From Promethearchaeota archaeon (GTDB taxonomy: Archaea > Asgardarchaeota > Thorarchaeia > Thorarchaeales > Thorarchaeaceae), in NCBI GenBank assembly GCA_048939765.1, contig JBHLPF010000023.1, positions 19,235-59,258 on the forward strand: 40,024 nucleotides of DNA. Direction: 5' to 3'. Shown in pieces: positions 853 through 5,930 of the stretch (positions within the stretch are counted from its first letter, which is position 1; every line of letters begins with the position of its first letter). The notes beneath the pieces are model-generated. The model was not told the DNA's origin. It searched no databases and saw only the letters and a list, made by a program, of their open reading frames with translations. Made by a program: the position numbers and the translations under genes.

Positions 853-2400
853 TCATAGAGGGATGTTGCCATGCTTCTTTGGAGGCCGACTCTGACGCTT
901 GCTTGCTAGTACATCTAGACCACTGCAAATCAGCTTGCGTGTTTCATGTGGGAAGATGACCTTGTCGATATACCCCAATCCTGCAGCGACATACGGATTG
1001 GCAAACTTCTCCCTGTACTCCTTCACCAGCTTCGCACGCTTCTTCTCCTTGTCCTTTGCCTTCTCAATCTCCTTGCGGAAGATGATGTTGATTGCACCAT
1101 CAGGCCCCATGACGGCAATCTCAGCACTGGGCCACGCGTAGACCAGATCAGCTCCAATATGCTTTGAGGCCATGACGTCAAAGGCGCCGCCGTACCCCTT
1201 TCTCGTCACAATTGTGATCATGGGCACTGTAGCCTCCGCATAGGCATATAGGATCTTTGCCCCGTGCCGGATGATGCCACCCCATTCCTGTGCAGTTCCA
1301 GGCAGGTATCCCGGCACGTCCATGAACGTGATGATGGGGATATTGAATGCGTCGCAGAACCTCACAAAACGGGCGCATTTGTCCGAGGCGTTTATGTCAA
1401 TGGTGCCTGCGAGATGCGCTGGATTGTTGCCTATTATTCCAACAGACCGACCATCGAATCGAGCAAAGCCTGCCATCATGTTTTGTGCCCAGTGTTCATG
1501 GACTTCGAAGAACTCACCATTATCGACCAGCTTCCTGACGACATCGCGCATATCATATGGCTTGTTGGGGTCATCCGGAACCAATTCATCGATGCTCTCA
1601 TCATAGTCATCTGGAGAATGGCCTGTGTCGACTCGGGGTGGGTCCTCGAGGTTGTTCTGGGGGATGTAGCTAAGAAGCGTCTTAATCTGTTCGAAGCAGT
1701 GGTCCTCATCCTCGCTTGCAAACTGTGCGACTCCGCTCACTGAGTTGTGAGTCATTGCGCCACCCAGCTCTTCGAAGGTGACCTCCTCACCAGTGACCGT
1801 CTTGATCACATCAGGGCCGGTGATGAACATGTGAGCGATATCCTTGACCATGATTGTAAAATCAGTCACTGCCGGACTGTAGACCGCTCCTCCCGCGCAT
1901 GGGCCCATGATTGCAGATATCTGTGGAATGACCCCGCTGGCGAGAGTATTAAGACGAAACACGTCGCAATATACTTTGAGTGCCTTCACGCCCTCCTGCA
2001 CGCGAGCACCAGCTCCTGAGTTCAATCCAATTATAGGGGCACCAGTGGACATAGCATGCTCCATAACTTTGACCATCTTCCCGCCATACATCTCTGCAAG
2101 CGAGCCGCCAAACACAGTGAAGTCTTGACTGAAGATGAAGACCTTTCGTCCAGAGATGGATCCATAGCCTGTTACTACACCATCTCCGAGAATTCTCTTC
2201 TTGTCCATTCCAAAATCAGGCTCACGATGTACAACGAATTCATCGATTTCCACAAAAGATCCTGAATCCAGCAATCTATCAATTCGTTCTCTAGCCGTCA
2301 ATCGTCCAGCTTTATGTTCTTTCTCAATGCGGTCAGCGCCACCGCCGAGCTTGGACTGTTCGCGCATCTCCTTGAGCTTCTCAAACTTTTCATTAGTCAT
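853..2400 (-). CDS. pccB: Acyl-CoA (propionyl-/methylmalonyl-CoA) carboxyltransferase beta subunit
   Basis: 515 aa with GRLTARERI, DGVVTGYG, QDFTVFGGS, GARVQEG, GPCAGGAVYSPA, DVPGYLPG, GIIRHGAK and a terminal KKHGNIPL. Confidence 0.95.
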   Translation of the reverse strand: MTNEKFEKLKEMREQSKLGGGADRIEKEHKAGRLTARERIDRLLDSGSFVEIDEFVVHREPDFGMDKKRILGDGVVTGYGSISGRKVFIFSQDFTVFGGSLAEMYGGKMVKVMEHAMSTGAPIIGLNSGAGARVQEGVKALKVYCDVFRLNTLASGVIPQISAIMGPCAGGAVYSPAVTDFTIMVKDIAHMFITGPDVIKTVTGEEVTFEELGGAMTHNSVSGVAQFASEDEDHCFEQIKTLLSYIPQNNLEDPPRVDTGHSPDDYDESIDELVPDDPNKPYDMRDVVRKLVDNGEFFEVHEHWAQNMMAGFARFDGRSVGIIGNNPAHLAGTIDINASDKCARFVRFCDAFNIPIITFMDVPGYLPGTAQEWGGIIRHGAKILYAYAEATVPMITIVTRKGYGGAFDVMASKHIGADLVYAWPSAEIAVMGPDGAINIIFRKEIEKAKDKEKKRAKLVKEYREKFANPYVAAGLGYIDKVIFPHETRKLICSGLDVLASKRQSRPPKKHGNIPL

Positions 2401-2743
2401 GTCGCTTTCCGCCTTTGAGATAATTCGTCATGACCATATTGCCGCGTTTTGAATCTTATGCTGAATCATGTTCATAGTCTTGTATCACTTTTCTAATAGT
2501 AAGGTTGCGCCTCGCCCGGTCCAGTGTTTCCCATAAGATGCTGCTAATTTCACCTGCGTTGTATGCTTCTGAATGTAAACTCCAAATAATGTGTGATAGA
2601 GGAATGGCATTGGATTTATTATCTCTAATCTATATTATGAAGGCTGTAGGTCAGGGTGATACCGTTTGCAGCTTCAAGGGAAGGTTGGAGATCGATACCT
2701 TCAATCTGGAAGGACTGAGAATGCTGTAGGAGAGAGGCATGGT

Positions 2744-3193
2744 ATGATGCGCATTGGACTGTTGGCCTCTCAAGACATTCGTCTGTTTCTCTGCGTGCTC
2801 GCATTCATCACGCCCTACATAGTTCAAGTGTCGTATGTGCTGGGCGATATCTCAATTCGATTATATGCACCCCTATGGGCTTATGGTTCGTTTGATTTTC
2901 CTATCTTTCGAATCCTGTCCGTCGACTACCTGATAATCGAACTCCCCTTTGGCATTGTCAGGCTCCTGTTTATTCAACAGGTCTACCTGTTCATGAACCA
3001 CCGTACTTCATTTCGCAAATTGGTGCTATACGGAATAGCCACTGAGATACCAGGCACGATCCTTGGATATATCTCATCTTACCTCTCGGCGCATACCGCT
3101 TTCTATGCTCCTGTGCCAATTGTCCTTTTCGTGGGACTATTCTTCGCAGTGAGAACACCAAAGAAGCCACCACATTGGCTTGATTCGGAATAG
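2744..3193 (+). CDS. Hypothetical multi-pass membrane protein
   Basis: ATG at 2744 after a purine-rich stretch. About 4 hydrophobic segments and a C-terminal PVPIVLFVGLFFAVR-x-PKKPPHW. Confidence 0.7.
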   Translation: MMRIGLLASQDIRLFLCVLAFITPYIVQVSYVLGDISIRLYAPLWAYGSFDFPIFRILSVDYLIIELPFGIVRLLFIQQVYLFMNHRTSFRKLVLYGIATEIPGTILGYISSYLSAHTAFYAPVPIVLFVGLFFAVRTPKKPPHWLDSE

Positions 3194-3472
3194 ATCTAGC
3201 AAGTGCTTCTATCAAAGCAGTGGATTACGAATGTACTATTCCTATTAAGGCCTAAGGCCCACCTAAAAAGAGCGTCCAACAAAAGTAGAGAGGATTGATT
3301 GAGAGATATCCTCATAGTAGAAGTAGATTCACAGAGAAACACCACAGAATAGTAACTGAACAAGTGAAGACGGGGACAATTCTGCACCTTTCCTGTATGA
3401 GATGTGGGAGGTGGGTTGAGAGAAACGTGAATCAATGAGAGCGGACGATTTCAATTCAAGATGTCTACCGAC

Positions 3473-3805
3473 CTATGCGAATGGGTCCTGAGGAAGCTGT
3501 GACCTTCTCATTCTCATTACTATGAAATAGACAGTGGCAATCAGCACTCCTATTAGTAGCAAGAGACCCAGCGGACTCAGGAGAAACATTGGCGTTTCTA
3601 TGACAGTAGTCTGAATATTGGCGGGCAGATAGACTAGTTGAGATGGCATTCTCTCCATCCTTCCGATTACACTAATGGACAGAAATCTGATGAGTCTTGT
3701 GTACGCCACATCTATCTCCGCATCATCAACAACTCCGGAAAAAGACGCATCCTTGTAATGAGGACTGCCAGAGGCATAGAACTCACACATCGCTACGCAT
3801 AGCAA
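3473..3805 (-). CDS. Hypothetical protein or gene remnant with a C-terminal TM anchor
   Basis: Ends PLGLLLLIGVLIATVYFIVMRMRR, a TM helix plus basic stop-transfer. Start is uncertain because the frame stays open to the TAA at 3881-3883. Confidence 0.4.
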   Translation of the reverse strand: MLCVAMCEFYASGSPHYKDASFSGVVDDAEIDVAYTRLIRFLSISVIGRMERMPSQLVYLPANIQTTVIETPMFLLSPLGLLLLIGVLIATVYFIVMRMRRSQLPQDPFA

Positions 3806-3880
3806 TGCAAATCCCTTTGCGATATGTACGTGGATCCTCTGATTGTCGAATGCTAACAGTTCATGGCTTTTTGCGTCGGA

Positions 3881-4219
3881 TTACATCTCATAGGCTTGCC
3901 CAATTGAATAGAGCTCCCAGAGAAGGTCAAGGTATCTTCCTCTGTTCTCAAATTTGACACTAAACTCAACCCCTCCCTTCTTCATCTTCTTGGTGGACTC
4001 CATACCCATCAGGAGGACTTCAATCTCCTCTGTTCGTTCCTCGTCAGCAGCTATCTTGAAGGACCTCCGGCCATAACCTACACTTACTGAAATGCCATTA
4101 GGAAATCTGAACATGTCGAGCAGCCCCCAGGTCACTCTACACCGATCTATTTTCATCTGCTTCCAACTATGAAGCACAACATCATCTCTCATAGTATCCG
4201 TGACTTCCAAGGTAATCAC
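3881..4219 (-). CDS. Hypothetical protein (112 aa)
   Basis: Protein-like composition; co-oriented directly downstream of the HNH gene. No motif recognised. Confidence 0.55.
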   Translation of the reverse strand: MITLEVTDTMRDDVVLHSWKQMKIDRCRVTWGLLDMFRFPNGISVSVGYGRRSFKIAADEERTEEIEVLLMGMESTKKMKKGGVEFSVKFENRGRYLDLLWELYSIGQAYEM

Positions 4220-4287
4220 CCAGTATTCTATAGAATGAATCCATGTTAATTCAGTGGTTCTATCTTTGACTGACTTGAAGTTCCATG

Positions 4288-4836
4288 CTATTGCTTCTTT
4301 GCTAGAATGCTCTCCAGACAGTAGACGGTCAGATTGGATTCTTCACAGAGATAGCCAAGTTCACATCTCCCGCAAAGCATCTCAAGCTGCTCCCTTCCAA
4401 TATCCAGAGTTCCCTCGAATTCATGCAGTTGATAGAGAAGTTTCAGGTATTTCCCCTCAGCTATGCGAGGAACCTCATTTCGTTTGTCCAGTCTGAGCCA
4501 TTCATACAAACCTCTTCCTCCCTTCGAAGAGTTGCAGCTCCTGCATGCCATCACAACATTATCAGCAATGTCAGGTCCGCTTCTGCTCTGAGGAACAAGA
4601 TGATCGTATGAGAGATCCTCATTTGCTCCACAATAGATACATTGGTTTGGCATCTCGCGTTCGTGGATGTACTCTTGAATGGATCCGGACCATTCAATCT
4701 CTCCAGACTGGAGTTTCTTGAATCGACTCATAATGAATCCAAACTGCTTCTTTCCAAACCCAGCTGAGGAGGATATTATCTTGGAGTACTGCCAATAGAG
4801 CAGATCCCTAATGGTCTTGACTGCAGACGGTGGCAT
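4288..4836 (-). CDS. HNH endonuclease (Zn-binding, McrA-like core)
   Basis: CIYCG-x7-DHLVP-x3-SG-x5-NVVMACRSCNSSKG forms the HNH motif with two CxxC. Extra C-terminal Cys cluster (CGRC..C..C). Upstream AGGGGT ribosome-binding-like site. Confidence 0.9.
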   Translation of the reverse strand: MPPSAVKTIRDLLYWQYSKIISSSAGFGKKQFGFIMSRFKKLQSGEIEWSGSIQEYIHEREMPNQCIYCGANEDLSYDHLVPQSRSGPDIADNVVMACRSCNSSKGGRGLYEWLRLDKRNEVPRIAEGKYLKLLYQLHEFEGTLDIGREQLEMLCGRCELGYLCEESNLTVYCLESILAKKQ

Positions 4837-5052
4837 CGCATCTTACCCCTTGTGCACAATACAATCTCTCTCCTGACTTATCAGGTTGAGGGTCAATAGT
4901 CCTCTGGAAATACCCTAACTTCGCCTACGGAAAAATCAAATGTGAATAGATAGCGTCGTTAGAAGAGGAAACAGGGCAAGAGACTATCGCGGCATAGAAA
5001 GCCCTAATCCCTTCAACATAGTTTTGAATGTTCTGCTAGACAATTCACCCTG

Positions 5053-5378
5053 AAAAATCTTGGAGAGGGGCTAGCAGTTCCTAGCCAGCCCCAGTAGGCG
5101 TGAAGGCACCTGCTTCAGAAAAGACACCAGTTGGGTCACAACCGGGTCGGGTCGAATGTACTAGTGATCATCATGGAATCGTCCATGCCTCCCGTACCAG
5201 GCGGTGGCTGTGCGGCCACAGTCACTCGAAGCAGGTCCCTGTAGAACAGATGATGCTTGCTGGACTCTGATATGCCGCCCAGTAGGTTGTTGGGGGTGTG
5301 GCCTCCGATAGAAGGGAGACTCTTACTGCGCAACTCATCAGCCGTCCGAAATTGCAATAGAGGACTCATCTGCTCCGC
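5053..5378 (-). ncRNA. Putative highly structured ~320-nt non-coding RNA of unrecognised family
   Basis: More than 12 helices traced by hand; about 9 G-U wobble pairs work only on the minus strand. GC is about 56% versus about 42% in the 4841-5060 flank (hand count). TATA-like box upstream and T5 tract downstream. Confidence 0.75.
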
Positions 5379-5398
5379 TATTATGTGGGAGAATGAGG

Positions 5399-5406
5399 CT
5401 TAAGAA
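5399..5406 (-). promoter_or_regulatory. TATA-like box (TTCTTAAG) for the putative ncRNA
   Basis: About 23-25 nt upstream of the first base of the 5' helix (5376), which is archaeal TATA-to-TSS spacing. Confidence 0.45.
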
Positions 5407-5426
5407 CCACCCATATCTCGAAAATC

Positions 5427-5930
5427 TTACTGATTTGCTCTCTGGACCCTGAGGTCTACCCCAACTACAGCCATCCCCCATTTCTCAAATCGAGAGTCGA
5501 GCTCCTTGGTAACGGCTGATTCAACACGATCTCTGTTTGTGACGAGGTCATCATAATCACGAGCCTCGATCTGTTCAATCATGACGTGCTTTGATGACTG
5601 TTGAGCAGTGGTCCGATAATCCTCAAGACTGAGAAAGGCCCGTTCAATGTCCACAACACGGTAACGAACCTCACCGACCAGTTCGACGGGAGTTCCATCC
5701 CGGCTCATTGCCTCTCCGGTCTCAACCTCTGCTGTCTGCGCTCTGAGCGATATCCTCGCTCCAATCTTATCAATGATAGGCGTCCTCCATACGATACCCG
5801 GACCCTTGACACCCGAGTATTTGCCGAAACGCAGGACTACTATCCGTTCCCATTCTGCGAGGACTTTGATTCCTGAGGCGATGAATATCAATGTGATAAG
5901 CATGAAAACCGCCGCGAATAATAGAGCCAT
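5427..5930 (-). CDS. Short SPFH/band-7 (stomatin-like) membrane protein
   Basis: N-terminal TM, then EWERIVVLRFGK-x5-GPG-x5-PIIDK, SRDG-x-PV and KWGM-x-V. Ends right after the SPFH domain. Confidence 0.88.
   Translation of the reverse strand: MALLFAAVFMLITLIFIASGIKVLAEWERIVVLRFGKYSGVKGPGIVWRTPIIDKIGARISLRAQTAEVETGEAMSRDGTPVELVGEVRYRVVDIERAFLSLEDYRTTAQQSSKHVMIEQIEARDYDDLVTNRDRVESAVTKELDSRFEKWGMAVVGVDLRVQRANQ

Follow-up and report, generated by a model that had tools for sequence, protein, structure and literature searches.

A conserved and strongly folded element of one Thorarchaeota genus, descended from a truncated Rad51/RadA-like gene

Is a conserved, strongly folded stretch in an unannotated gap of an archaeal genome an RNA gene, and, if so, from what did it arise? 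The question is posed by a locus in a Thorarchaeota MAG, here called G000, and thus in an Asgard archaeon, as the earlier note on this DNA had supposed. The window is the whole stretch of DNA that was analysed, 40,024 nucleotides in length. From the sequence alone, that note had described positions 5053-5406 as a heavily folded non-coding RNA with its own promoter and terminator signals, possibly a large and undescribed RNA of Asgard archaea. The features discussed below are collected in Table 1, in window coordinates; the minus strand is read for the element.

Table 1. Coordinates of the element, its predicted parts, and its ancestral coding remnants in the window
Feature	Positions	Strand	Basis
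Promoter-like block: TATA-like TTCTTAAG (5406-5399), with conserved ATATGGGTGG before it	5399..5417	-	Sequence
Element body, presumed RNA (313 nt)	5064..5376	-	84-91% identity in five other species
Domain 1: long irregular rod with apical hairpin	5243..5376	-	RNAfold; nine-sequence alignment
C-rich bulge CACACCCCCAACAACC, unpaired	5285..5300	-	Fold and alignment
Domain 2: 13-bp closing helix enclosing three nearly invariant small hairpins	5103..5240	-	Fold and alignment
Domain 3: terminal hairpin GGGGCUGGC/GCUAGCCCC	5067..5092	-	Fold and alignment
T5 run, possible archaeal termination signal	5053..5057	-	Sequence
77-codon ORF (ORF77), N-terminal Rad51/RadA-like remnant	5136..5369	-	BLASTP to P0002
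Out-of-frame parental coding remnant	5083..5142	-	DNA alignment to G014 paralogue B

Predicted fold and transcription signals

All of the helices listed in the earlier note lie where they had been placed, and the minimum-free-energy fold from RNAfold reproduces them. Those recovered include P1 (5376-5366/5253-5243), the apical hairpin GUCUCC/GGAGGC, and the helix that closes domain 2 (5240-5228/5116-5103). Predictions made separately for six orthologues arrive at these three domains every time.

The three domains differ in how they vary. In domain 1, the first 11 nt of the C-rich bulge (CACACCCCCAA), together with the preceding C at 5301, are invariant, barring a 3-nt deletion in JG65, the most divergent orthologue. 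A complementary target of the bulge was sought across the genome, and no convincing site was found. A telomerase-like template in the bulge was also considered, but no observation favoured it. In the closing helix of domain 2, one-sided changes retain G-U pairs, and a single double change, from A-U to G-C, occurs in JG65. Two inner helices of this domain, AGUGA/UCACU and CCGGUUG/CAACUGG, are present in the window sequence as described but are not conserved in relatives. In domain 3, 100% of cells are paired, with variation of the U-A/U-G and G-U/G-C types.

Folding energy supports the choice of strand. The minus strand of 5064-5376 has z = -3.81, and none of 100 dinucleotide shuffles is equally stable. 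Against shuffles, the minus-strand scores in the six orthologues are -3.8, -2.9, -4.8, -6.1, -4.9, and -3.2. The opposite strand gives z = -1.37 for the plus strand of the 354-nt stretch and z = -0.5 in a second test. In every orthologue tested, stability beyond that of shuffles is found on one strand, as in a structured RNA.

The comparative evidence can be divided into pairing and covariation. RNAalifold, run on eight sequences, gives an SCI of 0.86 and z = -7.4 against column shuffles (other strand, -3.6). When nine sequences of domain 1 are aligned to model R1, 95.5% of the cells are paired, a value reached by none of 500 shuffles. Five pairs are doubly changed (reached by 19 of 500 shuffles), and 4 of 500 shuffles equal or exceed the covariation score. 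Over the whole structure three pairs are doubly changed, and 28 of 500 shuffles do at least as well. All of these pairs (3-5) sit at third codon positions of an old reading frame, described below. In the single-sequence fold, pairing is kept by 55% of substitution types, compared with 25-40% in coding controls and 34% on the opposite strand. About 40-45% of the substitutions in predicted stems break a pair, and the variant X8 keeps six pairs and breaks nine. Covariation is modest, and weak for an RNA of 310 nt; the sequences are few and closely related.

The TATA-like box reported upstream was found again, with 23 nt between the end of TTCTTAAG and the first paired base (5376). TTTTTAGG precedes the SRP RNA gene of G000 with the identical 23-nt spacing. 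Just three differences occur across about 33 nt of the promoter-like block in the four species compared. In the genomes G005 and G013 another gene has been inserted upstream, yet the block remains attached to the element. The block is common to the paralogue B copies described below, where it appears as TGGGTGGTTCAAAAG. Such features suggest that it serves as a promoter. A second occurrence of the motif was sought in the genome, as would be expected of a regulon motif, and none was found; the motif is present once.

At the other end, conservation stops sharply at 5064. The run of five U residues reported after domain 3 is there, and most orthologues have a T3-T4 run no more than about 20 nt past the terminal hairpin. 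The hairpin may act as a terminator.

Known RNA families and distribution

No Rfam 15 family matches the window at gathering thresholds. With E-values up to 10, the region 4850-5600 gives a single, chance-level match on the plus strand (11.9 bits versus 56.1). The view that the element belongs to no known Rfam family is upheld both window-wide and locally. Archaeal SRP RNA and RNase P RNA are similar to the element in length and in promoter geometry. However, the element matches neither model, and both RNAs occur on other contigs of the genome, as the earlier note had expected. The archaeal RNase P RNA (RF00373), of which a genome normally has a single copy, lies at C46:115653-115990 (163 bits), and the archaeal SRP RNA (RF01857) lies, at full length, at C12:26313-26623 (L002; 87.9 bits). 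The latter score is below the gathering score of 96.5, and a standard annotation would miss this SRP RNA.

Homologues do exist, as had been anticipated, and all of them are in close relatives. BLASTN, which covered 60 relatives, found full-length copies in five further species of the genus, at the identity given in Table 1. No copy turned up outside the genus, where the search took in 20 genomes from 15 further genera of the family and 24 from other families in the order and phylum. A covariance model built from domain 1 was run on 86 genomes of the family. Weak matches to paralogues aside, strong matches occurred only in those six genomes, and the element was found in none of the 69 genomes from 15 other genera. 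Scanning metagenomic sequence, searching a protein database, and inspecting public contigs added four further variants: L059, L066, L065 (which is JG65), and a contig of run X8. This makes about ten variants in total, all within one subclade of one Thorarchaeota genus. Contigs from four DNA runs yielded nothing beyond extra sequence variants, and a search for RNA-seq runs containing the stretch found none. Partial matches occur in runs from marsh, mangrove, and marine sediment.

In G000 the element is single-copy. In G005, the element is cut off at the ends of two contigs, L007 (1-273) and L012 (1-151), whose overlap of 77 bases is identical. Rather than two copies, this appears to be a break in the assembly graph, possibly between strain variants.

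A short SPFH/Band_7 gene (167-169 aa) precedes the element wherever the contig reaches upstream. It lies directly upstream or, in G005, beyond the inserted gene; the short contig of G013 shows the inserted gene only. Members of the genus without the element are also without the short SPFH gene, and have solely an SPFH protein of 277-287 aa with about 40% identity. In the window, the SPFH/Band_7 gene (5427-5930) codes for 167 aa and is matched by the profile just to position 143 of 176.

The downstream genes differ across species, and G000, G002, G015, and JG65 each have a different one. The element's 3' flank appears to be a hot spot for insertions. For instance, the roughly 2.6 kb between the terminal hairpin and a carboxyltransferase gene (2391-856, minus strand) in the window (2400-5060) are present only in G000. 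An HNH endonuclease gene (4288-4836) lies in this insertion, along with several small ORFs without a Pfam match. In G009, the carboxyltransferase gene lies within about 90 nt of the element.

Descent from a Rad51/RadA-like gene

The domain-1 covariance model gave three weak matches of full model length in the same genus, which led to paralogues of the element. Aligned together with their flanks, these matches resemble the element from the promoter-like block through domain 1 to the middle of domain 2, beyond which they run on as plain coding sequence. The 77-aa ORF that the earlier note had seen overlapping the RNA is real (5369-5136), and its start codon is the parental ATG. BLASTP aligns it in frame with an intact paralogue, P0002 (276 aa, from the genome G014), with 46% identity over 68 aa (E = 1e-10). 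P0002 matches Rad51 in Pfam (1.1e-12) and RadA in the PDB (1.8e-15); it is an ATPase-core protein of the Rad51/RadA type whose Walker A motif is degenerate. Between ORF77 and the paralogue, the sequence FRTADEL is retained despite five synonymous differences.

The truncation can be followed in a DNA alignment to paralogue B of G014. The window copy is without 18 nt of the P-loop region, and a further stretch of about 100 nt is missing out of frame. A remnant of the parental gene follows, reading VVTQLVSFLKQVPSRLLGLA where the paralogue has LVVNQLEGFFETVPAQLLLLPGLA, and then the similarity ends. ORF77 runs from the former FxxA motif as far as beta-strand 2, with the P-loop region deleted. The frame of the remnant is an untranslated relic, because G002 carries a TAA in it. 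The same TAA rules out a frameshift product in which ORF77 would be fused with the downstream frame. No Pfam match was found for ORF77. Membership in Rad51/RadA (PF08423) calls for a complete ATPase core with Walker A and Walker B; ORF77 has lost the Walker A region, and its core stops after beta-strand 2.

The element descends from the Rad51/RadA family, as an internally deleted and 3'-truncated copy of a Walker-A-less paralogue. Being a cut-down gene copy, it is therefore not an RNA lineage of independent origin. The suggestion of an undescribed large Asgard RNA, taken as an ancient or widespread class, has to be given up on this account, and also on account of the restriction to a subclade of one genus.

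The intact relatives show what the fold has gained. For the equivalent 313 nt of intact paralogues, z is -0.13 and +0.99, and their folds are weaker by about 40 kcal/mol; a recently broken copy (a pseudogene) has z = -1.3. The excess stability was thus gained after the truncation. In the parent gene, for instance, the two segments that form the 9-bp core of the helix closing domain 2 show no complementarity.

Also present in the genus are canonical RadA, a Walker-A-less paralogue that is widespread (G000:C57), and broken copies of the G014 type. Among the last, G015:C34 (L028 1508-2300) has a TAA after HLF, a TGA and a TAG in frame, plus a frame change. Likewise, G003:C16 (L027) has lost its ATG and has several stops. 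The G014-type family seems prone to decay in this genus.

Constraint and competing explanations

Within the clade that carries the element, constraint acts on nucleotides and not on codons, and it is purifying. In four species, 5 of 26 four-fold sites in the ORF are variable (19%), compared with 39 of 60 (65%) in the SPFH gene next to it (p = 1.3e-4, Fisher test). Four-fold sites in the ORF are as constrained as second codon positions. Variable columns make up about 24% overall and 25% in the 71 nt past the stop codon, which are thus conserved like the ORF. Synonymous sites nearby change about three times faster than the element does. Purifying selection on it follows from the low variability at four-fold sites and past the stop codon, and from the abrupt end of conservation at 5064. 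A recent transfer or recombination tract was considered as the cause of the low divergence and rejected. Synonymous variability in the SPFH gene is uniform and remains high as far as the stop codon of that gene, which lies 50 nt from the element, so there is no local tract, and pairwise distances scale alike.

Insertions and deletions follow the predicted fold. The eight G000-type sequences have no indels over 313 nt except in the terminal loop. JG65 has three indels (-1, -3, and +19), all in unpaired places. The first lies in the apical loop, where the adjoining stem has a double change from C-G to U-A. The second lies in the C-rich bulge, and the third lies at the junction of domains 1 and 2, where it forms its own hairpin. 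About 30 codons of JG65 are moved to another frame, and their nucleotides stay conserved.

The earlier note had named codon-type conservation of the overlapping ORF as a sign against an RNA. Such conservation is seen between paralogues (pS 0.63, pN 0.34) but not within the element-bearing clade. One competing explanation is a short protein gene (77-89 aa), cut down from a Rad51/RadA-like gene, whose peptide could keep an N-terminal FxxA-type contact motif or the conserved C-terminal half and whose unusually constrained mRNA would account for the nucleotide conservation. This is unlikely, although several observations speak for it. The parental ATG is kept, and the ORF is open in all 9-10 variants: in the nine of the G000 type (chance estimate 0.046) and in JG65 too, where the -1 and +1 frame shifts compensate. 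This is the sole coding-type signal within the clade; no other-frame or antisense ORF is open in all variants. A crude pN/pS is 0.45, the C-terminal half (LLRVTVAAQPPP.TGGMD) is almost invariant, and the most conserved stretches coincide with motifs conserved in the RadA family. However, the nine ORFs have variable columns in the proportion 22/28/34 by codon position, and their 29 synonymous columns are what random placement gives (26 +/- 3.3, p = 0.23). Neither an excess of synonymous changes nor a frame kept across indels is found, as the JG65 codons illustrate, and the FxxA motif is absent in G009, G013, and X8. The constrained four-fold sites, the equally conserved 71 nt past the stop, and the lack of a Pfam match point the same way. 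In addition, a beta-alpha-beta piece of the RecA fold without its P-loop is unlikely to fold alone. Alternatively, the element may be a decaying, functionless pseudogene whose fold and conservation are accidental. Deletions, an out-of-frame remnant, a premature stop, a narrow distribution, and the plainly broken sister copies G015:C34 and G003:C16 would all suit this improbable reading. It does not account for the threefold slower evolution relative to adjacent synonymous sites, the near absence of indels in the eight G000-type sequences, the sharp boundary at 5064, or the excess folding that intact parents are missing.

Three further explanations have much lower standing. The element could be a cis-acting part of a neighbouring transcript, either the 3' UTR or terminator of the SPFH gene or a leader of the carboxyltransferase gene. 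In most genomes it lies 50 nt past the SPFH stop codon, and in G009, G005, and G013 a co-oriented carboxyltransferase gene lies about 90-600 nt downstream. This is very unlikely, given the different downstream genes in G000, G002, G015, and JG65 and the opposite-strand gene that parts the element from SPFH in G005 and G013 while the promoter-like block stays with the element. A carboxyltransferase leader or riboswitch in particular is rejected, since the downstream genes vary. Likewise, size, fold, and the lack of a known family might suggest a class of large structured RNA in Asgard archaea that is old and independent in origin, with the ORF being incidental. The in-frame homology to a protein gene, with the promoter included, makes this highly improbable, as does absence from the 69 genomes of 15 other genera (covariance model) and from 24 genomes of the order and phylum (BLASTN). 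Finally, a 182-aa HNH protein is encoded on the same strand about 230 nt downstream in G000, and the element might be its guide RNA, in a module like omega-RNA or HEARO. There is hardly any chance of this. The HNH gene adjoins the element in G000 only and is absent in every other element-bearing genome; it is not a partner, because it lies in the 2.6-kb insertion that only G000 has. Neither HEARO nor any other Rfam family matches, and the protein has HNH domains only. An identity of this protein as IshB was also considered and rejected, both for the adjacency restricted to G000 and for the lack, by eye, of such an N-terminal motif.

The preferred reading, with a probability of about 0.55, is a lineage-specific structured RNA that arose from a truncated RadA-like gene, is conserved for its nucleotides and fold, and may still be translated. 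Most likely, the letter-by-letter conservation is due to its working as a folded RNA of about 310 bases. A duplicate of a Walker-A-less Rad51/RadA-like paralogue lost about 100 nt internally, out of frame, together with its 3' two thirds. Most lineages have also lost 18-19 nt of the former P-loop region, and the parental promoter and start region were kept. In this model, the minus strand would be transcribed into some 310-325 nt, from about 5376 to just past the hairpin at 5067. The transcript would form a rod in domain 1 and a closed set of several hairpins in domain 2, and end in the terminal hairpin; selection would now act on nucleotides and fold in place of amino acids. Such an RNA may act in trans through its invariant unpaired parts, which comprise the C-rich bulge and the apical loop of domain 1 as well as the three small hairpins of domain 2. 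Since the parental promoter is kept, it is probably co-expressed with RadA-like paralogues. The 77-codon frame may still be translated, either as a by-product or as a second function.

A more specific proposal can be offered only tentatively, with the odds against it. A large three-domain functional RNA, recently born from a recombinase-paralogue gene, might, by virtue of the parental promoter, have stayed in the same recombination or repair regulon. There it might act as a regulator, for instance as a decoy or scaffold for factors binding either the RadA-like paralogues or the mRNAs of these.

Several large structured RNAs of bacteria, such as OLE, GOLLD, ROOL, and HEARO/omega-RNA, have functions that are unknown or were found recently. 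Like them, the element is several hundred nucleotides long, has multiple domains, carries its own (predicted) transcription signals, and is under non-coding-type constraint. In contrast to them, it has far weaker covariation, no conserved protein partner gene, a very narrow distribution, and a recent, traceable origin; it matches none of them in Rfam.

To our knowledge, no case of a gene-derived origin has been described for a 300-nt multi-domain RNA, or for any such RNA in archaea. Small RNAs derived from genes are documented in enteric bacteria. An example is OxyS, whose origin lies in part of a peroxidase mRNA and which has retained the parental regulation (Krieger et al. 2022, PMC8825220). 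OxyS is the closest documented counterpart. Here too, a putative RNA gene can be traced to a fragment of a protein gene, the parental promoter and with it presumably the parental regulation are kept, and the gene is young and restricted to one lineage. Unlike OxyS, the element is archaeal, is about three times longer, has three heavily folded predicted domains, and has an old frame that is still open.

If the RNA reading holds, the element would be a rare structured RNA of some size whose protein-gene ancestor can still be recognised. On the more specific proposal above, it would also provide a dated, stepwise example of the passage from coding sequence to structured RNA, in which truncation was followed by a gain of long helices and then by the confinement of indels to loops. 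The material for comparison includes intact paralogues, fresh pseudogenes, and an intermediate, JG65, which still has a P-loop remnant. The narrow distribution limits the wider importance of the case. The locus also serves as a warning: a strong fold with promoter and terminator signals in an unannotated gap does not amount to an independent RNA class, and a check for distant paralogues is needed.

The nearest protein-coding relatives are the core-only Rad51/RadA paralogues, which are RadB-like and are represented here by G014:C239 and G000:C57. They share common ancestry, the start codon, and the promoter-like block with the element. In contrast, the element has 77 codons, an out-of-frame internal deletion, and no codon-type constraint, and its P-loop region and 3' two thirds are gone. 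The paralogue at G000:C57:17600-18328 (locus L032 1474-2292, minus strand) is a core-only protein of 272 aa in which Walker A is replaced (LFYGTRSLHDD). Of the 17 genomes of the genus that were searched, 12 have relatives with 56-59% identity, and in one of these 12 a contig end truncates the relative. This type appears to be a conserved recombinase paralogue that is now without the ATPase motif.
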